A stretch of 64,000 nucleotides of DNA from Roseateles sp. Lineage in GTDB: Bacteria; Pseudomonadota; Gammaproteobacteria; Burkholderiales; Burkholderiaceae_C. The stretch spans positions 9,308-73,307 of the forward strand of contig NZ_DASWYS010000050.1 of assembly GCF_036404855.1 (NCBI RefSeq), written 5' to 3'. The first letter of the stretch is position 1; every line of letters begins with the position of its first letter. The position numbers were made by a program, and so were the translations under genes. The notes below the pieces were generated by a model. The model saw only the letters and a list, made by a program, of their open reading frames with translations, was not told the origin of the DNA and searched no databases. Positions 3,910 through 59,979 of the stretch are shown here, piece after piece.

Positions 3910-6900
3910 TTAACGCTGCAGGCTGCGTGGCTGCGCCACGGCTTCCAGCGGCACGCCGCCGCGGGACACGGCCAGCGGCACCAGGCGCACGGCCTCCAGC
4001 GCATTGGCCGCGTCACCGTCGGTGGTGACGGCCAGCGTCAGCGTGTTGTCGCCGTTGGAGTTCAGGATGCCTGGCGGCATCACGAAGACGCGCTGCGGGC
4101 CGATGTGGGCAATGAACTGACCCAGGTTCCAGCCGTTTACGAAGATCAGTGCGCGGTTTTCGCGCTCCGAGCGCGGCTTGCTGGTGTCGCCGAAGGCCAG
4201 TCCCAGTTGCACGTCATGGCCTTGTGGCAAGTCCAACTTGAAGTTGGTGCGCAGCCAGTACGTGCCGGCGGCGGGCGGGGCGGCGCCTGGCGTCGTCGCG
4301 TCCCAGCCGGCCTGCGACTTGGCGGGGTCGACCGGGAGGTGCCAGCCCATGCGTTCCCCCTGAAGGCCACCATTGTTGAGTGGGCCGCGGACGAGGTCGG
4401 CAATGTCCTCGCCGCCTTTGTTGCCCTGGATCTTCCAGGCGATGGTGGTGCCAAAGCGCTGGCCGCCCTTGGGCGCCAGCGACGCGGAGATCAGGCCGCG
4501 GGCCTCCTTGTGCACGTCGTCAGCGAACAGGTCCCAGTTGTGCGAGTTGTTGCGTACGACGACGGCGATGACGTGCTCGCCAGCCGGCAGGTCCTTCAGC
4601 AGATGTCTGAAGGTGTCGGTTGTCTCGGGGAAGGGGCGGCCGGTGTCGTGGTCCTGTTGGCCGACGAACTTGCCATCCACCCAGACTTGGATCATGCCGG
4701 CGCCGCCGCCGCCGAAGAACAGCTCCAGCTGCAGCGGTTTGGTGTCGCTTGTCGTGAAGCGGCCGCGGTACCAGACGTCGCCGTGGTGGAAGCCGTAGTC
4801 GCTCATCGCCAGCACCGGTTGGCCCCGGTCGGGCGCGGTGTAGACGTTGGCGGCAGACACGGCAGCGTCGGCCTTGCGCCAGCCGCTGTCGTCAAACTTG
4901 GGGTCTGCTTCCAGCGAGTCGAAGCGGCGTGTCCACGCGGTCTGAGTGAGGTCGGGCAGTTGGATGGCGGCCGGACCTGCCAACGTGACGCGGGCAACCA
5001 GGCTGTGGTCTTGCGCAGCCGCGGCGACAGTCTGGCCGTTGAAACTCAGTGCATTGATGCCTTCGGGCACCCAGGCGCGCAGCGTGCTTGCCTGCGTCGT
5101 GTCGCCGGTCAGTTGCAGGGTCCTGCCGCTGAAGGCGGCCGTGCGCACCAGTGCCGGGCTACGCACCAGCACAGCCTGGTCACCCGCCTTCAGGCGCCAG
5201 AACTCCCAGCCGGTCTTCTCGTCGGCCAGCAGCAGCAGCAGCGGTGCGCGGCCGCCGCCGCTGATCAGTAGCTCGGTCAGTTCGCTGTGGCGGTAGTTCA
5301 GCCGCAGGTCTCCGCGCTGGGCATCCCAAAGCGTCTGGGCCTGGCCGCGCAGCACCTGCACCTTGGGTTGGCTGGTGTAGCGAAGGACGGTCTCGCCGTC
5401 GTCGCCATTGCGGCCGTAGAGCAGTGCCACGTCGCGGGCACCCTGCTGCAGCTGCGCCTGCAGCTCGCTAGTGCTGTAGACCAGGTGCTGGCGCTCAAGC
5501 GCGTAGCTGGCCAGCAGCATCTTGGCGTCTTGGCCGGTCAGCGTCAGCTTGCCGGCCTGCGGCACCTGGTAGTTGCCGTCACGTGTCTGCAACTTGAAGC
5601 CGAAGGCCTCGCTGCCGGTCAGGTGGTTGTGCTGGGCCAGCAGCACGTGGCTGCCGAGCGCCTTGTTGACGTTGTGATAGAGCCTGATCTTGGCGTTGCC
5701 GGGGTCCAGCACCTCACCCTTGTCCATCGCCGCAAGCACGGGCGTGGCAGCCTGCACGAAGCCGCCCATCTGCTTGAGTACCAGCGCCTTGTCGCGCATC
5801 ACGCGCGACTCGTTGATGGGCGAGCCGTAGTCGTAGCTGGTGTAGACCACCGGTCCGCCCAGCCAGCCCCAGCTGGTTCCGCCGTAGGCCATGTAGATGG
5901 AGTGGATGGTCAGCGAGTTGATCAGGCTGCCGCCGTAGACCACGCGCTGGTAGCCCGGCCCCTGGCGCTTGGCCGTGCACTCGTACGTGCCGTTGCTGCC
6001 CCAGTAGTCGAACCAGCCCGCGCCGATCTCGGCGACGAAGCCCGGCGTGTTGGGCGAGGCGAGCGAGCCGACCTTGGGGAAGTTTCGACCGTAGATGCCC
6101 CAGTCCTGCACCGGCGCTGGTGCGCCGGGCGTGCCGTGCACGTCGCAGATGCCGCCGGGGTAGCCGTCGAAGGCGTAGAGGTCCGTCGGGCCGGGGTTGG
6201 CGAACGGGGCGGTGGAGTTCTTGGGCGTCCAGTCCGGCAGCCGCGATGCGGCGTTGTGGAACAGCGGCACGGTGATGCCGTCGGCGCGCGCCTTATCCGC
6301 CAGGTGTTGCATGTGCCGGATGTTCTTGGGGTTCACCGCGAACAGCTCGTTCTCCAGCTGGTAGGCGATGACGTTGCCCGTGCCATTGGTGATCTGGTGG
6401 CGGGCCAGAATGGCGTTGATCTGCGTCATCCACTCGTCGGTGGCGGCCTGGTACTCGGCTGCGTCGGTGCGTGCCTCGACACGCTGGCGCAGCAGCCAGC
6501 CGGGGAAGCCGCCGGCCGTCAGCTCCGCATTCACATACGGCCCCATGCGGGCGATGACGTAGAGGCCCTCTTCCTCGGCCATCTGGATGGCGCGCTCAAT
6601 GTTGCGGATGCCTGTGAAGTCGTAGTGGCCCGGCTTGGCCGAGTGGTAGCCCCAGCTGAAGTAGAAGGCCACGGCATTCAGGCCGGACGCCTTCATCTTC
6701 TGCAGCACGTCGCGCCACAGGCTGGGCGAGGGCAGACGGAAGGGATGGAACTCGCCGCCGAAGATCATCTCGCGCTTTCCGTCGATGATCAGCGAGTGGC
6801 GGTCCCAAGTGATGGTCTTGGGCTTGGCCTTGGGTGCCGTCGCGCGGTCCAGCTGCGCGGTGTCCTCGGAGATGACGGTGAAGTGGCGCACGCTGCCTGA

Positions 6901-52491: not shown

Positions 52492-52973
52492 GTGAACTGC
52501 TGCTCGATGCCGAGGCCCTGTACCTCGAGCTGAAGAAAGGGGTGCAGCGCCTGCTGACATCCGACACCGCCCTTGTTGGCATCTGGAGCGGCGGTGCCTG
52601 GCTGGCCGAGCGCCTGGCAGCCGATCTTGGCGTCGCGGCGGGCACCATCTCAAGCGCGCTGCACCGCGACGACTTCGGCTCGCGCGGCCTGGCCAAGGCC
52701 GACCACACGACGCTGCCCTTCGACGTCAACGGCCGCGACATCCTGCTCATCGACGATGTGCTCTACACCGGCCGTACGACGCGCGCCGTCATCAACGAGT
52801 TGTTCGACTTCGGACGCCCGGCGCGCGTGCAGCTCGCCGTGCTGGTGGACCGCGGTGGCCGGGAGCTGCCCATCGAGCCGGCGTTCTCGGCGGCGCGCGT
52901 CACGCTGAAGGCTGACCAGAGCCTGCGCCTCGCCCGCGGCGAAGACCGACGATTCACGTTCGAGGTGAAGTGA
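52488..52973 (+). CDS. pyrR: PyrR-like regulator / uracil phosphoribosyltransferase
   Basis: 'LHRDDF', '[16 protein letters not shown]', '[11 protein letters not shown]'. Confidence 0.93.
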
Positions 52974-53935
52974 TGCTCAGCAAACGCAACCCTCAACTGA
53001 ACAAGCACGGCGAGCTCATCCACTTGCTGTCCGTCGAAGGCCTGCCGCGCGCGGTCATCGAGCAGATCCTGGACACGGCGGGCAGCTTCCTCTCTGTCAA
53101 CGACCGTGAAGTCAAGAAGGTGCCGCTGCTGCGCGGCAAATCGGTGTTCAACCTGTTCTTCGAGAACAGCACTCGCACGCGCACCACCTTCGAGATCGCT
53201 GCCAAGCGGCTGTCCGCGGACGTCATCAATCTCGACATCGCACGCTCCTCCACCGCCAAGGGCGAGACGCTGCTGGATACGGTGGCCAACCTCAGTGCCA
53301 TGCATGCCGACATGTTCGTGGTACGCCACAGCGAGAGCGGCGCACCCCACCTGATCGCCCAGCACTGCGCGCCGCATGTGCATGTGGTGAACGCCGGTGA
53401 CGGCCGCCATGCACACCCGACTCAGGGCCTGCTGGACATGTACACGATCCGGCACTTCAAGAAGGACTTTCGCAACTTGACGGTCGCCATCGTCGGCGAC
53501 ATCGTCCACTCGCGCGTCGCACGCTCGGACATCCACGCACTGAACATCCTCGGCGTGCCCGAGATCCGCGCCGTCGGTCCGAAGACTCTCGTGCCTGGCG
53601 ACCTGCGTGACATGGGCGTGCGTGTCTGCCACGACATGGCCGAGGGGGTGAAGGATGCCGATGTCGTCATCATGCTGCGTCTGCAGAACGAGCGCATGAA
53701 CGGCGGCATGCTCCCCAGCAGCGGCGAGTTCTTCAAGCACTTCGGCCTGACGCCGGACAAGCTGGCGTTGGCCAAGCCCGATGCCATCGTCATGCATCCC
53801 GGGCCCATCAATCGCGGCGTGGAAATCGCGTCCCAAGTGGCGGACGGCAAGAGCAGCGTCATCCTTCCTCAAGTGACATTCGGCATCGCTGTCCGAATGG
53901 CTGTCATGGCCATCCTCGCAGGGAACGAAGCATGA
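52973..53935 (+). CDS. pyrB: Aspartate carbamoyltransferase catalytic subunit
   Basis: '[12 protein letters not shown]', '[16 protein letters not shown]', 'LRLQNER', 'MHPGPINRG'. Confidence 0.98.
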
Positions 53936-55236
53936 AGATCCTCATCAAGGGCGGCCGGCTGATCGATCCGGCATCCAACCTCGACCGCGTCGGCGACGTC
54001 GCCATCGCCAACGGTCGCATCGTTCATCTCGGCGACGTCAGCGACTTTGGCGCCGAACGCACGGTGGACGCCACCGGCCTCATCGTCGCCCCTGGCCTGG
54101 TGGACCTTTGCGCCCGGCTGCGCGAGCCTGGTCACGAGCACGAGGGGCTGCTGGAAAGCGAACTCGCCGCAGCGGCTGCAGGCGGCGTGACCAGCCTCGT
54201 CTGTCCGCCCGACACCGACCCGGTACTGGACGAGCCTGGTCTGGTTGAGATGCTGAAGTTCCGCGCTCGCAAGCTCAGCCGCTGTCGCCTGTTCCCGCTG
54301 GGTGCGCTGACGCGTCAGCTGCAGGGTGCTGCGTTGACCGAGATGGCCGAGCTGACGGAGGCCGGTTGCATCGGTTTCTCACAGGCCGAGGTGCCCATCA
54401 AGGACACGCTGGTGCTCAGTCGCGCGCTGCAGTACGCGGCGACTTACGGCTATGCCGTCTGGCTTCGCCCGCAGGACTTCTACCTCGGCGGTGGCGTGGC
54501 CGCCAGCGGCGCGGTGGCCACGCGGCTGGGCTTGTCGGGCGTGCCGGTCAGTGCCGAGACGGTGGCGCTGCACACCATCTTCGAGCTGGTCCGCGCGACT
54601 GGCGCGCGCGTGCACCTGTGCCGCATCAGCAGCGCCGCGGGCGTCGAACTGGTGCGCGCGGCCAAGAAGGAAGGACTGCCCGTCACGGCGGACGTGTCCA
54701 TCAACTCCCTGCACCTCAGCGATGTCGACATCGGCTACTTCGACTCGGCCATGCGCCTGACGCCACCGCTGCGCCAGGGCCGTGACCGCGACGCGCTGCG
54801 CGCCGGCCTCGCTGACGGCACCTTGGATGCCCTGGTGTCCGACCACATGCCCGTGACCAGTGACGAGAAGGCGGTACCCTTCGCCGAAGCCACGCCGGGC
54901 GCCACGGGCCTGGAGCTGCTGCTGAGCCTGGCCCTGCGCTGGGCAGGGGATGGCGGGCTGCCGCTGCAGCGCGCGCTGGCCGTCGTCACGGCCGAGCCCG
55001 TGCGCGTGCTTGGCAGCGCGTTGGGTTCGCTGTCGGCCAGCGCCGGCCGCCTGGTCGAGGGCGGCGTGGCCGATGTCTGCGTCTTCGACGCCAGCGCGAG
55101 CTGGGCCGTCGCACCCGAGGCACTGGCCAGCCAGGGCAAACACACCCCGTTCGCCTTCGCGTCCAGCGGCTTCGAGCTGCCAGCACGTGTACGCTGCACC
55201 CTGGTTGCGGGCCACATCGCTTTCGAAACCGAATGA
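53932..55236 (+). CDS. Dihydroorotase-like protein, probably the catalytically inactive PyrC' scaffold of ATCase
   Basis: Amidohydrolase fold, but '[14 protein letters not shown]' replaces the DxHxH Zn motif and 'VHLCRISS' replaces HxxHxS; coupled to pyrB. Confidence 0.88.
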
Positions 55237-55955
55237 GGGCCGTATGGCGCCTCGCGCGCCTCGCGCCCCATGTGCTGCACGGTCTGTGGATCGTGAGCCG
55301 GCACTTTGGCCGCATGACGCCTGCGCGGCGCCATGAGCGCATCCGGTGGTGGTCGATCAAGACGCTGCGACTCCTGGGCATCGAGCTCAAGGCTTCGGGG
55401 CAGGCGCTTCCGGCCGGACACTTGCTGGTGGCAAACCATGTGTCCTGGCTCGACATCGCCGGCATCCATGCGGTGCTGCCGCAAGCCCGTTTCGTGTCCA
55501 AGTCGGACGTGAAGCACTGGCCGCTGATTGGCACCCTGGTGGACGGCGCGGGCACGCTCTTCATCGAACGGGCCAGCAAACGAGATGCGCTGCGTGTCGT
55601 CCATCAGACGGCCGAAGCGCTGAAGAATGGTGATTGCGTGGCCGTCTTCCCCGAAGGCACGACCGGCGCCGGCCCGGAGCTGCTGCCCTTCCACGCCAAC
55701 CTGCTGCAGGCCGCCATCACGACCGGCGCGCCCGTGCTGCCCGTCGTGCTGCGCTGGTACGAGCCCGGCGAGCGCTTCAGCGCTTCGGCGCGCTTCATCG
55801 GCGACATGACGCTGGCCGAGAGCCTGTGGCGCATCGCGTCCGCGCGGGGCCTAGGCATCGAGATCCAGGTGCTGCCCAGCGTGGCAACCGAGAACCTGGA
55901 TCGGCGCGGGTTGGCCGCGGCGCTGAGAACGCTGATCGCGGCCAAGCTGGGCTGA
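55233..55955 (+). CDS. Lysophospholipid (1-acylglycerol-3-phosphate) acyltransferase
   Basis: 'VANHVSWLD', 'FIER', 'VFPEGTT'. Confidence 0.93.
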   Translation: MRAVWRLARLAPHVLHGLWIVSRHFGRMTPARRHERIRWWSIKTLRLLGIELKASGQALPAGHLLVANHVSWLDIAGIHAVLPQARFVSKSDVKHWPLIGTLVDGAGTLFIERASKRDALRVVHQTAEALKNGDCVAVFPEGTTGAGPELLPFHANLLQAAITTGAPVLPVVLRWYEPGERFSASARFIGDMTLAESLWRIASARGLGIEIQVLPSVATENLDRRGLAAALRTLIAAKLG

Positions 55956-55971: not shown

Positions 55972-57450
55972 TCAGCCCGCTGAGGGCGGAAGTGACGGCG
56001 TGGCACAGAGCGTTGATCGCGGACTGCTCTGCCCCTGCGTCAGCATCTGGCGGGCCGCCTCGCCGAGCAGCTTCAGCCCGGCCAAGCGCGTGGCGTCCAG
56101 GGGGTGCGCCGCCGTCAGGCGAAGGCATTGGTCGAAGCGCCCAGTCGGACTGAAGACGGCACCCGGCACGAAGGTGTAGCCGTGGGCCTGGGCCTGCGCG
56201 AGCAGATCCGAGGTTGCCAGGTTGCCTGGCAGCGTTACCCACAGCGTGTAGCCCGCCTCACCCGCCGAGACGCTGGTGCCCGGCGGGAAGTGCTGCTTCA
56301 CCGCCCGGGTCCAGGCGGCCACCTGCTGGCGCAGGCGCAAGCGCAGCCGTCGCAGGTGGGTGTCGAATCCATTGCCCGACAGGAACTCGGCGAGCACGTC
56401 ATCGGTCATGCGGGGAATCAGTTCGCCATGCACCGTTCGCGCCGCGCGCAGCCGCAGGCGGTGGCGTGCGCTGACAACGTAGCCCAGGCTGAAGCCAGGG
56501 CCGGTGATGCAGGCCAGGCTTGAGCAGTAGATCACCACGTCGTCGGCATCGAAGGACTTCAGCGGGCGCGCCCTCTCCGTGCCCCGATGCAGCGCCCCCA
56601 TCAGGTCGAACTCGATGGCGGTGACGCGATGTGCCCTCAGCAGCTCGACCAGAGCCTGCTTCTGGGCGTCGCTCATTGGGCCGGCAGCCGTGGCGAGGAG
56701 GCCGAGGTCGATCACGCAGACGGTGGGCCGCGCCTGCACCAGGAACGCAGCCATCGCGGCGACCATGTCGCCCCCCGTCGAGGGAGCAGGCAGCTCCAGG
56801 GGGTGCAACCCCAAGGCAGTCACGACCTCCAACACCCTCAGCGAGCCCGGGGACGCCACGGCGACGCAGTCGCCGTCCTGGGTCAGCAGGCTCAGGCACA
56901 GCTGCAGGGACTCCCCGTCGCCGTGGGTCAGGACCACGTCTTCGGGATCGGCTCGCACACCCGTGCGACCCAGTCGCCCGGCAAGCTGCTCGCGCAGGGC
57001 CTGGCTGCCGAAGACGGAGCCTGCGGCCAGCGTGGCGACCTGGGTTCGCAGGCAGGCTGCCACCAGCTGTCGCAAGGCGGCCAGCGGCAGCAGCGCCGGT
57101 GGCAGGGCGAGATGGCCGAGCGACACCAGGCCGTCGCGTGTGGCTGCCTGCGCCATCAGGCGTTGGCGCCTTTCCTCCAGCTGTAGTGCAGGCGCCGAGC
57201 CCGGCGGCGCCTGCCTTGGCGGACTGTCTCCCGAGGTGAGCACGAAGAAGCCACGCCGGGGGCGGGACTCGATCCAGCCCGCGTCTTCCAGTCGGTGCAA
57301 AGCGTGGGTCACGGTGGCCAGGCTCATCCCGTGTGCGTCGCACAGGTCCCGGACCGAAGGCAGCCGGTCGCCGGGACGGTAGCGGCCTTCGCGCAGGGCC
57401 TGTGTCAGCAAATCGGCAAGCGCCAGGTAGAGATGCGGGCGGGACGTCAC
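55972..57450 (-). CDS. MocR/YdcR-type GntR regulator with a degenerate aminotransferase (PLP) domain
   Basis: wHTH 'LYLALAD...G.YRPGDRLPSVRDL...SLATV..A...LE..GWIESRPRRGFFV'; aminotransferase-like C-terminus ending 'FVPGAVFS...CLRL'; GTG start at 57450 is an estimate. Confidence 0.88.
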   Translation of the reverse strand: MTSRPHLYLALADLLTQALREGRYRPGDRLPSVRDLCDAHGMSLATVTHALHRLEDAGWIESRPRRGFFVLTSGDSPPRQAPPGSAPALQLEERRQRLMAQAATRDGLVSLGHLALPPALLPLAALRQLVAACLRTQVATLAAGSVFGSQALREQLAGRLGRTGVRADPEDVVLTHGDGESLQLCLSLLTQDGDCVAVASPGSLRVLEVVTALGLHPLELPAPSTGGDMVAAMAAFLVQARPTVCVIDLGLLATAAGPMSDAQKQALVELLRAHRVTAIEFDLMGALHRGTERARPLKSFDADDVVIYCSSLACITGPGFSLGYVVSARHRLRLRAARTVHGELIPRMTDDVLAEFLSGNGFDTHLRRLRLRLRQQVAAWTRAVKQHFPPGTSVSAGEAGYTLWVTLPGNLATSDLLAQAQAHGYTFVPGAVFSPTGRFDQCLRLTAAHPLDATRLAGLKLLGEAARQMLTQGQSSPRSTLCATPSLPPSAG

Positions 57451-57528
57451 GGTCTTGGCGACGAGCGGAAGAGGGAGCGAACGATATCGGCAGTTGGCCC
57501 CGTTGGATGGATGCACGGACCCCCGACC

Positions 57529-57558
57529 GCCATCGATACAGCCGCCTGTATCGATGGC
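57529..57558. promoter_or_regulatory. Perfect 13-bp inverted repeat between the divergent regulator and MFS genes; candidate operator
   Basis: GCCATCGATACAG-ccgc-CTGTATCGATGGC. Confidence 0.6.
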
Positions 57559-57637
57559 CAGGAGGTCGTGCTGGGTCTGCCGCAGTCGGAGTCCGATACC
57601 TAGAGTCCCGACGCCCGACACTCCCAGGACATCCTGA

Positions 57638-58921
57638 ATGACTTCATTGGTGGACTCCCTGCGCCACTGCCCGCCCGCCGCGCGCCGGCTCCTGGCCGGC
57701 GAGATGGCCGGATTGCTGGCGACAGCCAGCACCCAGACCACCCTGGCTTGGTGGATCGCGCATTCGGGCGGGTCCGGGGATCTTGCGCGCCATGGCTTGG
57801 TGATCGCGGTTTGTGCGATGGCGGCGATGCCCCTCCTGTCGCCGATGGGGGATCGCTGGTCCAAGCGCCGGGTGGTTCAGGCGGCGCGCGGCCTGTTGTT
57901 GCTCGAGGCACTCGCGCTGGCCATGCTGGCGGGCATGGATGTCTACAGTTTGTCGACGCTTTGCTTCTGCGGCGCCTTGTCGGCAGTCGTGACCGCGGCG
58001 CTTGCGCCGACCCAGGCCAGCATGCTGCCTGAGTTGGTTGGCGTGGATCGTCTGCCTGACGCGATCCGGTTGCGCCGCGGGTGCCAGGCCATGGGTGGAC
58101 TGGCAGGCCCGGCCGTGAGTGGCGCCTTGCTGGCGACGGACGGCATTGCGGCGGCCATGGTCGGGGCGTTGTTGTTGACGCTCGTCGCGGCAGCCGCAGC
58201 GATGTGGCTTGGCCCGCCCGGAGTTGCGCCAACCGCTGCCGCGGCGGGCGGATGGCTGGGCGACATGGGTGCTGGTTTGCGCGCCAAGTGGCGCGTTCCC
58301 GTCGACCGGTGGTGGACGCTGACGGGCGCCTTGATGATGGTGTTCTTCCTGCCGGCCACCGGCATGCTGCTGCCGCTGCGGCTGCAGGCCCTGGGCCTGT
58401 CCGGCGGCTGGCTCGGCGCGTGCAGTGCCTCGCTGTCGCTGGGCGTGATGGCCGGCATCGCGGGCCTCGCCGATGCGCTCATTCGCCGGCTGGGCCGTGT
58501 GCGCAGCATTGCGGTGGCGATCGGCGTCTGCGCAGGCGCCATGGCCGCAGCAGGAGCATGCGCCCAGCCTCTGGCGCTGCTTGGCTGCTATGTGCTGATG
58601 GGCATGTGCATGTCGGTCACCCAGCTCGTGGGCCAGACCCATCGCGCACTTGCGGTTCCGGAACACTTCCGGTCGCGCATGGCGGCTGCGCAACTGGCCC
58701 TGGCTCAGCTGGCGGCCAGCGTGGCGCCGGCGGTCGCGGGCGTCCTGCTGACGCTCTGGCGCGTCGAGGCGGTGTATCTCTGCATGGCGATGGGCTTCCT
58801 GGCCAGCGGCGCGTTGCTGCTTGCCGTGCCGGAGCTTCGGCCCTTCCTTCGGCTCGATCACGAGCAGGTGAGGAACTGGTACGGGCGGCAGTACCCGGAG
58901 GCCTTCGGGCCAAGGCAATGA
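57638..58921 (+). CDS. MFS transporter (DHA3/MefA-like exporter)
   Basis: About 12 hydrophobic helices, motif A-like 'SPMGDRWSKRR', 'LAGPAVSGALL', C-terminal 'VPEHFRSRM'; AGGA RBS. Confidence 0.85.
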   Translation: MTSLVDSLRHCPPAARRLLAGEMAGLLATASTQTTLAWWIAHSGGSGDLARHGLVIAVCAMAAMPLLSPMGDRWSKRRVVQAARGLLLLEALALAMLAGMDVYSLSTLCFCGALSAVVTAALAPTQASMLPELVGVDRLPDAIRLRRGCQAMGGLAGPAVSGALLATDGIAAAMVGALLLTLVAAAAAMWLGPPGVAPTAAAAGGWLGDMGAGLRAKWRVPVDRWWTLTGALMMVFFLPATGMLLPLRLQALGLSGGWLGACSASLSLGVMAGIAGLADALIRRLGRVRSIAVAIGVCAGAMAAAGACAQPLALLGCYVLMGMCMSVTQLVGQTHRALAVPEHFRSRMAAAQLALAQLAASVAPAVAGVLLTLWRVEAVYLCMAMGFLASGALLLAVPELRPFLRLDHEQVRNWYGRQYPEAFGPRQ

Positions 58922-59012: not shown

Positions 59013-59324
59013 ATGGACAAGGTGTTCAAGGCTTTGAGCGATCCGACGCGGCGGCGCGTCCTGCAGCTGCTGCGTGAGCGGGAGATGACGGCTGGCGAGC
59101 TGGCCGATTGCTTCGACCTGTCCAAGCCGACGCTGTCGGGCCACTTCGCCGTGCTGCGCGAGGCCGACCTCGTGAGTTCCGACCGTACCGGAACCACCAT
59201 TACCTATCGGCTCAACGTGTCGACGCTGGAGGAAGCCCTGCTGGGCTTCGCAGAGGCTTTCGGCATCGGCGAGGCCAAGGCGAAATCGTCATCCCCACGC
59301 AAGGCAGGAGGCTCCCATGTTTGA
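59013..59324 (+). CDS. ArsR-family autorepressor (SdpR-like)
   Basis: 'VFKALSDPTRRRVLQLL...MTAGELAD.FD.SKPTLSGHFAVLREADLV...GTTI.Y.LN.S.LEE'. Confidence 0.9.
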   Translation: MDKVFKALSDPTRRRVLQLLREREMTAGELADCFDLSKPTLSGHFAVLREADLVSSDRTGTTITYRLNVSTLEEALLGFAEAFGIGEAKAKSSSPRKAGGSHV

Positions 59325-59979
59325 ACGTTATGGAACTCGCATCCAGGTCGCCCTGATCGCCGTCATGGCGCTGGCAGGCGCCTGGGCCTTCATGCAGCTG
59401 CCGGCGGGGACTCAGGTGCCGGTGCACTTCAACGCGCTGGGAGAGGCCGATGGCTGGGCCGCCGCAGGGCTGGGCCTCTTCATGCTGCCACTGCTGGCCT
59501 TGGGCCTGCTCGGCCTGCAATGGGTGCTGCCGCGGCTGGATCCGCGCGGCGAGAACCTTCGCAAGTCCGGCAAGGCGCTGGCGACGATCTGGCTTGCGGT
59601 CACGCTGCTGCTGGCGCTGGTGCAGGCCCAGGTCGTGGCGATGTCGCTCGGTCAGGCCGGCCCGGCGCCTCGTCTACCCATGCTGTTGATGGGAGGCCTG
59701 TTCGTCCTCATGGGCAATGTGCTGGGCAAGCTGCGCTCCAACTACACGGTGGGCATCCGCACGCCATGGACGCTGGCCAACGAGCGCGTCTGGGACCAGA
59801 CCCACCGCTTCGCCGGCAAGGTGTTCGTCGTGGCCGGCCTGCTGCTGGTGGCGCTGTCGATGTCGCCGCTGCCGCCGCAGTGGCAGGCTGCGGCCATCTG
59901 CGGCACGGCACTGGCTGCCGCGGCGGTGTCGGTGCTCAAGTCCTACTGGCTGTGGCGCCGGCAGCAGGGTGGGGCCTGA
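59317..59979 (+). CDS. SdpI/YfhL-family immunity-like membrane protein (DUF1648 plus SdpI)
   Basis: 'VPVHFNALGEADGW', 'GNVLGKLRSNYTVGIRTPWTLANERVWDQTHRFAGKVF'; overlaps the repressor gene. Confidence 0.9.
   Translation: MFERYGTRIQVALIAVMALAGAWAFMQLPAGTQVPVHFNALGEADGWAAAGLGLFMLPLLALGLLGLQWVLPRLDPRGENLRKSGKALATIWLAVTLLLALVQAQVVAMSLGQAGPAPRLPMLLMGGLFVLMGNVLGKLRSNYTVGIRTPWTLANERVWDQTHRFAGKVFVVAGLLLVALSMSPLPPQWQAAAICGTALAAAAVSVLKSYWLWRRQQGGA

Follow-up and report, generated by a model that had tools for sequence, protein, structure and literature searches.

The locus and its genes

The window analysed here, a 64,000-nucleotide stretch of DNA from Roseateles sp., carries on its reverse strand a gene for a MocR-like regulator in which the binding site for pyridoxal 5'-phosphate (PLP) is dismantled and a cysteine stands where the cofactor-binding lysine is expected. 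Divergent from it, across an intergenic region of 187 bp, lies a gene for a transporter of the major facilitator superfamily (MFS), and a candidate operator is found between the two. The positions of these features and of the residues discussed below are collected in Table 1.

Inspection of the open reading frames (ORFs) confirmed the extent of the regulator gene given in an earlier note on this DNA, and its statement that the frame is uninterrupted. All four motifs quoted in that note are present in the translation (LLATAAG at residue 251, IEFDLM at 279, CSSLAC at 309 and PGFSLGY at 318), and the DNA it quoted for the third of these, TGC TCA AGC CTG GCC TGC, was found as written. Homologues from 27 genomes, whose N-termini (VTSRP... 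or MSERP...) begin at the same aligned residue, support the GTG start. P0001, the public protein cluster to which this gene belongs, is annotated with 549 aa from a start 57 codons upstream of the GTG (57451-57621, reverse strand); this is probably an over-extended call that runs across the putative operator. The gene was also found in contigs of four independent metagenome runs, their sources including sludge, soil and groundwater, with 0-6 single-nucleotide differences, no insertions or deletions and an unchanged Cys codon, so that the sequence is not an assembly artefact. In one Roseateles metagenome-assembled genome (L002, 6001-8241) the regulator frame has no stop at the normal place and continues to 746 codons against the usual ~470, extending across the stretch that faces the plsC-like gene; either an assembly error or real read-through may account for this.

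Table 1. Features of the regulator-MFS locus, in window coordinates.
Feature	Position	Strand	Description and evidence
MocR-like regulator coding sequence	55972..57450	-	492 aa, GTG start at 57450, stop included, frame uninterrupted
GntR-type winged helix-turn-helix (wHTH), residues 7-70	57241..57432	-	Pfam PF00392, E=8.1e-19; AlphaFold2 predicted local distance difference test (pLDDT) 84-92
Fold-type-I aminotransferase-like sensor domain, residues ~88-470, without PLP site	56041..57189	-	phmmer against the PDB; Foldseek
His113, clade-specific invariant in the loop aligned with the GGLP segment of 1x0m	57112..57114	-	His 89/89 clade; outgroup S19
Asp178, acidic, in the phosphate-binding loop	56917..56919	-	clade E66/D15; outgroup A21
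Ala253 in place of the O3' Asn (N-P motif)	56692..56694	-	clade S28/A25/R23; outgroup N23; LLATAAG on FQNP.G
Phe281-Asp282-Leu283-Met284 in place of D-D-V-Y	56599..56610	-	HMMER alignment, column statistics
Cys314 codon (TGC) at the Schiff-base Lys position	56509..56511	-	Cys 92/92 clade; Lys 23/23 outgroup
Ser321 at the phosphate-binding Arg position	56488..56490	-	clade S68/N11/G7; outgroup R23; PGFSLGY on PGFRIGW
Arg444, retained substrate-carboxylate Arg (Arg386 of aspartate aminotransferase)	56119..56121	-	Arg 91/91 clade, 5/5 transitional, 23/23 outgroup
Conserved GCCGATATCGTT element ~30 nt upstream of the regulator start	57480..57491	-	conservation of G(C/G)TATCGT
Box 3, GTGCATCCAT, degenerate direct repeat	57507..57516	-	3 mismatches, 25 bp from box 2; spacing and sequence
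Candidate operator palindrome GCCATCGATACAG-cgcc-CTGTATCGATGGC (boxes 1, 2)	57529..57558	.	13-nt arms 57529-57541 and 57546-57558, 100% complementary
Conserved CCTAGAGT, candidate MFS -10 (TAGAGT)	57599..57606	+	32 nt before the ATG; conservation
Divergent MFS transporter, presumed regulated gene	57638..58921	+	427 aa; Pfam MFS_1 E=4.8e-22, MFS_3 E=1e-6, 28 bits

Domain architecture and predicted fold

The wHTH of the regulator, which the earlier note had called intact, is recovered by Pfam at residues 7-70 (Table 1), and the claim that the fold of the sensor domain is retained agrees with both sequence and structure comparisons. In a phmmer search against the PDB, residues 88-470 match the solved aminotransferases 1x0m and 3aov with E~1e-24 and LysN (2egy) with 6e-20, and the whole chain aligns with PdxR and GabR (E=1e-8 for GabR). 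An AlphaFold2 model built from a 14-sequence alignment has a pLDDT of 84.8 and a predicted template modelling score of 0.74, with low confidence only in the linker and the termini; residues 77-86, with pLDDT below 50, form a flexible linker joining the wHTH to the sensor domain. Foldseek matches this model to LysN 2egy with template modelling scores of 0.83-0.86, and over its full length to GabR 4n0b and PdxR 7zla.

A Pfam scan of the window regulator gave no match to PF00155 (aminotransferase class I/II) at E<=0.01; a PF00155 match is precomputed in about half of the homologues that share the cysteine (hereafter the Cys clade). The window protein also scores below the cutoffs of all named NCBIfam MocR equivalogs (score/cutoff: PdxR, the best-scoring named model, 193/320; YczR 162/487; EhuR 128/480; rhizopine MocR 104/650; GabR 66/600; PtsJ 58/573). 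Its predicted architecture and its candidate operator make the protein a member of the MocR/GabR subfamily of GntR regulators; judged by cofactor, it falls outside. Many proteins of the Cys clade carry the public label "PLP-dependent aminotransferase family protein", which is probably wrong for them.

Loss of the PLP site

Residue equivalences were taken from HMMER alignments to the solved aminotransferases 1x0m, 3aov and 2egy, and column statistics were computed over 92 members of the Cys clade, five transitional forms and the 23 nearest PLP-intact relatives, which served as outgroup. CSSLAC aligns on ..SFSK, placing Cys314 at the position of the Schiff-base lysine (Lys312 of GabR, Lys258 of aspartate aminotransferase, AspAT). 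IEFDLM aligns on VEDDPY or VEDDAY, so that Phe281 occupies the position of the aspartate that contacts the pyridine nitrogen and Met284 that of the tyrosine that contacts O3'. The first of these columns reads C70/F13/S3/R3/L2 in the clade and D23 in the outgroup, and the second M69/L18/F5 against Y21/F2. The phosphate-binding arginine and the asparagine of the N-P motif are replaced by Ser321 and Ala253, the aromatic residue that stacks on the ring (Phe or Tyr in the outgroup) is Ser203 in the window and Ser or Pro across the clade, and the serine preceding the Schiff-base lysine has become Ala313. In the phosphate-binding loop, the acidic residue at position 178 would put a negative charge where the phosphate would sit. 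The PLP cup is thus dismantled at eight canonical positions.

The earlier note had drawn its four substitutions (Schiff-base lysine to cysteine, loss of the aspartate-tyrosine pair, loss of the phosphate arginine, and LLATAAG in place of the asparagine motif) from an ungapped alignment to a YdcR/MocR consensus. The nearest PLP-intact relatives do read IEDDVYAEL, CSSFSK(S/C)L, PGYRIGW and FQNPLG in the same columns, and each of the four holds in the alignments to solved structures. The broader statement that every key PLP-binding residue is lost goes slightly too far: Ser203, Ala313 and Asp178 add to the quoted losses, but Ser311 (equivalent to AspAT Ser255) and Gly177 are kept.

One alternative is that the protein still binds a B6 vitamer in a non-canonical manner, for example as a thiohemiacetal that Cys314 would form with the aldehyde of PLP, or as non-covalently held pyridoxal or pyridoxamine. 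Thiols add reversibly to aldehydes, and the overall fold and the location of the pocket are retained. Each element of the phosphate cup, however, is gone or inverted in charge (Arg to Ser, Ser to Ala, Ala to Asp/Glu), neither the contacts to N1 (Asp) and O3' (Asn, Tyr) nor the stacking aromatic survive, and the Pfam aminotransferase model has no match, so we regard this alternative as very improbable. Nor does the clade offer a substitute lysine: the only one fixed is Lys298, which is equally fixed in the PLP-intact outgroup, and binding of PLP through another lysine is therefore unlikely.

Residues kept and newly fixed in the putative pocket

Thirty-five of the 492 positions are at least 97% conserved in the clade, Cys314 among them, and about ten of these differ from the outgroup consensus, including Cys314, Gly342, Arg338 and Ala336. 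His113, Arg205, Glu208 and His341 are clade-specific and 92-100% conserved among the residues present. The arginine that binds the substrate carboxylate in aminotransferases, Arg444, is retained throughout (Table 1). Asp178 tends to occur with Phe281, as in the subclade of the window (56917-56919 and 56608-56610), and Glu178 with Cys281, as in most other members; this pairing may reflect size compensation between two former PLP contacts.

Conserved cysteines raise the possibility of a thiol switch, in which Cys314 would sense oxidants, electrophiles or a soft metal by forming a disulfide, becoming S-alkylated or coordinating the metal, perhaps with Cys309 (in C-x4-C spacing) or Cys281 as partner, and the MFS protein would export the offending compound. 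Cysteine and histidine do accumulate at positions aligned with the aminotransferase active site: Cys314 and His113 are invariant, Cys309 is present in 89 of the 92 clade members and Cys281 in 70. Cys309, however, is also present in 22 of the 23 PLP-intact outgroup proteins and is hence not part of the innovation, Cys281 is phenylalanine in the window protein and its subclade, and the placement of these residues rests on alignment rather than geometry. MFS exporters of this kind are not generally known as metal pumps. We consider a thiol switch improbable.

Extent of the Cys clade and selection on it

Among 5.8 billion proteins searched, ~94 homologues were retrieved, and the 92 of the Cys clade (41-100% identity) belong to Sphaerotilaceae (Roseateles, Pelomonas, Paucibacter, Mitsuaria, Rubrivivax, Aquabacterium and Piscinibacter) or to one Chitinimonas genome. 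TGC encodes Cys314 in the window and 24 genome loci; a single locus (L031) has TGT. Nei-Gojobori ratios of nonsynonymous to synonymous substitution (dN/dS) for 14 pairs were 0.05-0.27 over the whole gene and 0.09-0.28 over the sensor domain alone.

These results bear on two outcomes that the earlier note had named as fatal to its proposal, namely that homologues all retain the lysine and that this copy evolves neutrally. Neither holds: no clade member has the lysine, and the sensor domain is under purifying selection. Simultaneous loss of many catalytic-site residues can resemble decay, and a pseudogene or neutrally drifting paralogue was considered. The intact frame, the 92 homologues with the same substitutions, the low dN/dS, the conserved synteny and operator (below) and the metagenome variants, which are point changes only, all speak against decay. 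The clade-wide cysteine and the dN/dS values refute it to the point that we give it next to no credence. The concerted loss of the PLP site within a retained fold, as the earlier note proposed, is supported by the clade-wide cysteine, the selection and the confident fold prediction. Judged by these comparisons, the fold is kept, the protein is under selection and the pocket appears re-specified rather than relaxed.

At the Schiff-base position, five homologous proteins of Chitinimonas and Parachitinimonas carry Thr, Ala, Val or Leu; the tyrosine and the arginine are missing from them too, and three of the five still read IEDD and NFPNP, with Asp and Asn kept. They are possible evolutionary intermediates. 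Loci of this group that lack the lysine, the cysteine and the divergent MFS gene (L025-L027, L030, L032, L034, L049 and L050) have varied neighbours, among them an ABC exporter, a GNAT protein, a DinB/UDG/DUF218 group and a P-type ATPase. The neighbourhood of the Chitinimonas viridis type (DinB, UDG, DUF218 and P-type ATPase) was considered as a clue to function and was uninformative.

An exhaustive profile search of 1.84 billion representatives yielded 65,576 MocR-like proteins. In this set the Cys clade collapses to ~4 clusters at 50% identity and is therefore narrow. The lysine is lacking in 13 of the 150 nearest 50%-identity clusters (proteins P0269, P0303, P0307 and P0312, and also P0241, P0345, P0214, P0216 and P0217). 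They include a separate set in which it is replaced by histidine (FSH, LAH, YSH or CAH) and in which the phosphate arginine is also lost, to His, Asn or Gly. Loss of the lysine is thus recurrent in this branch of MocR regulators, and the Cys clade, on the alignments, is its largest and most thoroughly remodelled case among the clusters examined here.

The divergent MFS gene and the gene neighbourhood

For the synteny survey one genome per species was scanned for relatives of the regulator, giving 48 loci that were then searched with the neighbours from the window. In addition to the window, each of the 26 complete Cys-clade loci has a homologue of the MFS protein (44-77% identity) encoded divergently upstream of its regulator. 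The sole Cys-clade locus without it is cut at a contig end. The one Cys-bearing Chitinimonas genome also has the divergent MFS gene, whereas the Lys-less, Cys-less Chitinimonas and Parachitinimonas loci have no such gene. Relatives of the MFS protein show the same narrow taxonomic spread as the Cys clade. All-against-all clustering of the flanking ORFs of 34 loci found no third conserved neighbour. From their synteny, regulator and MFS protein appear to form a self-contained two-gene module in which the cysteine and the transporter travel together. Next to the homologues of Chitinimonas koreensis and Parachitinimonas lie divergent ORFs of 51 aa, which were considered as a conserved small partner and rejected, since they show no homology to one another and nothing corresponding to them exists elsewhere.

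The earlier note had called the divergent gene an exporter. That an MFS gene is divergent and conserved is borne out; the export role rests on a weak family resemblance. The protein weakly resembles proton antiporters of the DHA3/EntS type, and its NCBIfam scores lie far below the cutoffs (TIGR00900 94 bits, cutoff 320; EntS 44, cutoff 324). Its substrate could not be named by comparison, as there is no solved relative and 92 homologues bear only generic names.

The other neighbours in the window are common only to the two closest Roseateles genomes. They comprise pyrB, a dihydroorotase-like (pyrC-like) gene and a PlsC-type acyltransferase gene (52970-55955, forward strand, with 4-nt overlaps at 53932-53935 and 55233-55236), genes for an ArsR-type helix-turn-helix protein and an SdpI-like protein, and a Hyi-like gene. 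With 98-99% identity to its counterpart in Roseateles metagenome-assembled genomes, PyrB assigns the window to Roseateles/Pelomonas. Immediately downstream of the MFS gene, the ArsR-type gene (59013-59324, forward strand) overlaps by 8 nt a gene for a membrane protein of the SdpI/YfhL family (59317-59979, forward strand), an arrangement like an SdpR/SdpI repressor-immunity pair, and this too is limited to the two closest Roseateles genomes.

Candidate operator in the shared intergenic region

The exact sequence CTGTATCGAT occurs in the 64 kb only twice, both times in the palindrome between the two genes. Among 28 orthologous intergenic regions the 8-mer core of the box, ATCGATAC, is present in all 28, each region contains at least one CTGTATCGAT box with at most two mismatches, and in the 13-kb loci hardly any box lies outside the regulator-MFS intergenic region. 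A third box, degenerate in the window, follows box 2 with a start-to-start spacing of 24-25 bp wherever both were detected (25 of the 28). Typically an inverted box is followed by a pair of direct boxes, and these by G(C/G)TATCGT some 30-40 nt before the regulator start. The last of these, the GCCGATATCGTT element in the window, may be a fourth half-site, the -10 element of the regulator, or both.

On the MFS side the 8-mer ACTCTAGG/CCTAGAGT is present in 15 of the 28 regions and variants of it in most others, and CCTAGAGT may, as a weak inference, be the -10 element of the MFS promoter. A strict sigma-70 scan of 57400-57700 returned no promoter, and both -10 candidates come from conservation.

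The commonest MocR operator has a pair of direct boxes plus one that is inverted, usually with a TGT core (PMC5320631). The boxes found here are of that kind, being direct and inverted repeats with a TGT core close to the regulator gene. Boxes resembling CTGTATCGAT also lie upstream of PLP-intact gammaproteobacterial relatives of ~31% identity (L036, L039 and L041, ~5876-5942) and of transitional Chitinimonas genes, so the DNA specificity appears to be older than the loss of the cofactor. Beside one of these PLP-intact relatives is a divergent PhzF-like gene (L036, 5022-5816, reverse strand), as in the "PdxQ" regulons of Suvorova and Rodionov (PMC5320631).

Proposed mechanism and its main rival

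The proposal that a repurposed, cofactor-independent regulator controls the divergent gene is supported by the MFS gene being the only conserved neighbour and by the shared, conserved MocR-style operator. Our preferred reading, to which we assign a probability of roughly 0.7, is that the protein is a functional, PLP-independent, ligand-responsive local regulator of the MFS gene. A head-to-tail dimer would bind the CTGTATCGAT boxes and repress its own promoter through the boxes next to the regulator start, and the same dimer would also act on the MFS promoter, in the way that GabR and PdxR regulate the genes divergent from them. Whereas the effector of a canonical MocR protein forms an external aldimine with PLP, here a small molecule would enter the remodelled pocket directly and switch the mode of DNA binding. 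The pocket would be lined by Cys314, His113, Arg205, Asp/Glu178, Met284, Phe/Cys281 and the carboxylate clamp Arg444. Because Arg444 is retained and Arg205 and His113 are gained, the ligand is most likely anionic and carboxylate-bearing, and would be moved by the MFS protein. Cys314 could be a ligand contact or a reactive thiol.

A more specific proposal, which we regard as considerably less certain, makes Cys314 a chemically active sensor that captures a thiol-reactive, metal or carboxylate-bearing effector and switches on a dedicated, co-evolved MFS exporter; His113, Arg205 and the former carboxylate clamp Arg444 would complete the rebuilt pocket. The clade would then be the first natural MocR lineage to abandon PLP, with the Chitinimonas and Parachitinimonas proteins as living intermediates, and the protein would represent a new sensing chemistry on the aminotransferase fold.

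Several points weigh against a ligand-responsive regulator. DNA binding, ligand and regulation are all argued comparatively, and the residues said to line the pocket were placed by equivalence to AspAT and LysN positions rather than by geometry. With no promoter returned by the strict sigma-70 scan, the choice between activator and repressor logic is a guess. Position 281 varies within the clade (Cys, Phe, Ser, Arg or Leu), so the pocket is not uniformly fixed. RNA sequencing data for the Piscinibacter sakaiensis homologue consist of one long low-depth contig, possibly DNA carry-over, and are uninformative on expression. The Lys302His mutant of EnuR cannot take up PLP, still dimerises and acts as a ligand-blind constitutive repressor (PMC8739950), so that a MocR protein without the lysine could be merely signal-blind.

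That last observation leads to the main rival, in which the aminotransferase-like domain is kept only for dimerisation and DNA bending, Cys314 is a structural filler of the emptied pocket, and the protein is a constitutive repressor, activator or autoregulator whose output is set by its own level or by another factor. Variation within the clade at the former PLP positions 253, 281, 203 and 321 fits such a scaffold. It is harder to reconcile with the invariance of Cys314 in 92 of 92 proteins spanning 41-100% identity, with the new fixation of pocket-equivalent positions (His113, Arg205, Glu208, Arg338, His341 and Gly342) and with the still invariant substrate-carboxylate Arg444. Moreover, a permanently repressed transporter gene would not be expected to persist in every complete locus. 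We judge a ligand-blind scaffold rather unlikely and prefer the ligand-responsive regulator.

Significance

In the literature MocR/GabR regulators are treated as PLP-dependent by definition, and the Cys clade contradicts this working definition. A conserved, selected clade without the cofactor site indicates that the aminotransferase fold can act as a cofactor-free sensor, and the homologues form a natural series from PLP-intact proteins, through proteins that have lost Lys, Tyr and Arg, to proteins that have lost all contacts and gained Cys. The theme is not categorically new, as sensor domains that descend from enzymes and have shed their catalytic or cofactor sites are well known in evolution. 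As a simple two-gene system present in the culturable Rubrivivax gelatinosus, Roseateles and Piscinibacter sakaiensis, regulator and MFS protein should allow both the ligand and the transported compound to be found experimentally.

Comparison with known systems

In a 2019 classification the PLP Asp and Lys were conserved across all MocR clusters (PMC6677901), and the lysine is strictly conserved in 278 EnuR proteins (PMC8739950). The full-text literature searched holds no description of a Lys-less MocR clade, though an earlier mention in passing is possible. BioL, an "unusual MocR-type" regulator (PMC12704756), was considered as a precedent and set aside, as it is unusual for other reasons.

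The nearest PLP-intact relatives (P0098-P0120, from Lysobacter, Marilutibacter and others, 34-36% identity) match the window protein in length and in ungapped motif spacing and share its CSS..(K/C), PG..G. and LRL motif frames. They differ in keeping Asp, Asn, Lys and Arg in 23 of 23 proteins each, as well as the tyrosine, and in not being linked to this MFS gene.

GabR of Bacillus subtilis (PDB 4n0b and 4mgr) has the same succession of GntR wHTH, linker and fold-type-I aminotransferase-like domain, regulates a divergent target through repeated boxes and autoregulates (PMC6522883). It carries PLP on Lys312 and senses gamma-aminobutyric acid as an external aldimine, whereas in the window protein this lysine is cysteine and the PLP cup is gone. 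In sequence the two proteins are only distantly similar, as the phmmer E value of 1e-8 and the 66 bits against the NCBIfam GabR model show. PdxR, from Bacillus clausii and others (PDB 7pq9 and 7zla), likewise belongs to a divergent pair with two direct motifs and one inverted motif between the genes, the three-motif site lying between pdxR and pdxST (PMC10450172). PdxR responds to PLP itself and acts on the genes for PLP synthesis; here there is no PLP site and the presumed target is the MFS gene.

A membrane transporter as target has parallels in NorG of Staphylococcus aureus and in the YczR-YczE system, which are MocR-type and act on efflux pumps or membrane proteins rather than on the catabolism of amino compounds (PMC6677901; PMC4944035). 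YczR differs in keeping the PLP Asp and Lys (PMC4944035) and NorG in controlling several unlinked pumps, and neither has been reported to lack the PLP site; both keep PLP or are taken to do so.

A MocR protein that folds, dimerises and represses without the Schiff-base lysine is known in the Lys302His laboratory mutant of EnuR (PMC8739950). There the change is an engineered loss of signal with the rest of the PLP cup intact, whereas in the Cys clade it is natural, clade-wide and accompanied by newly fixed residues.

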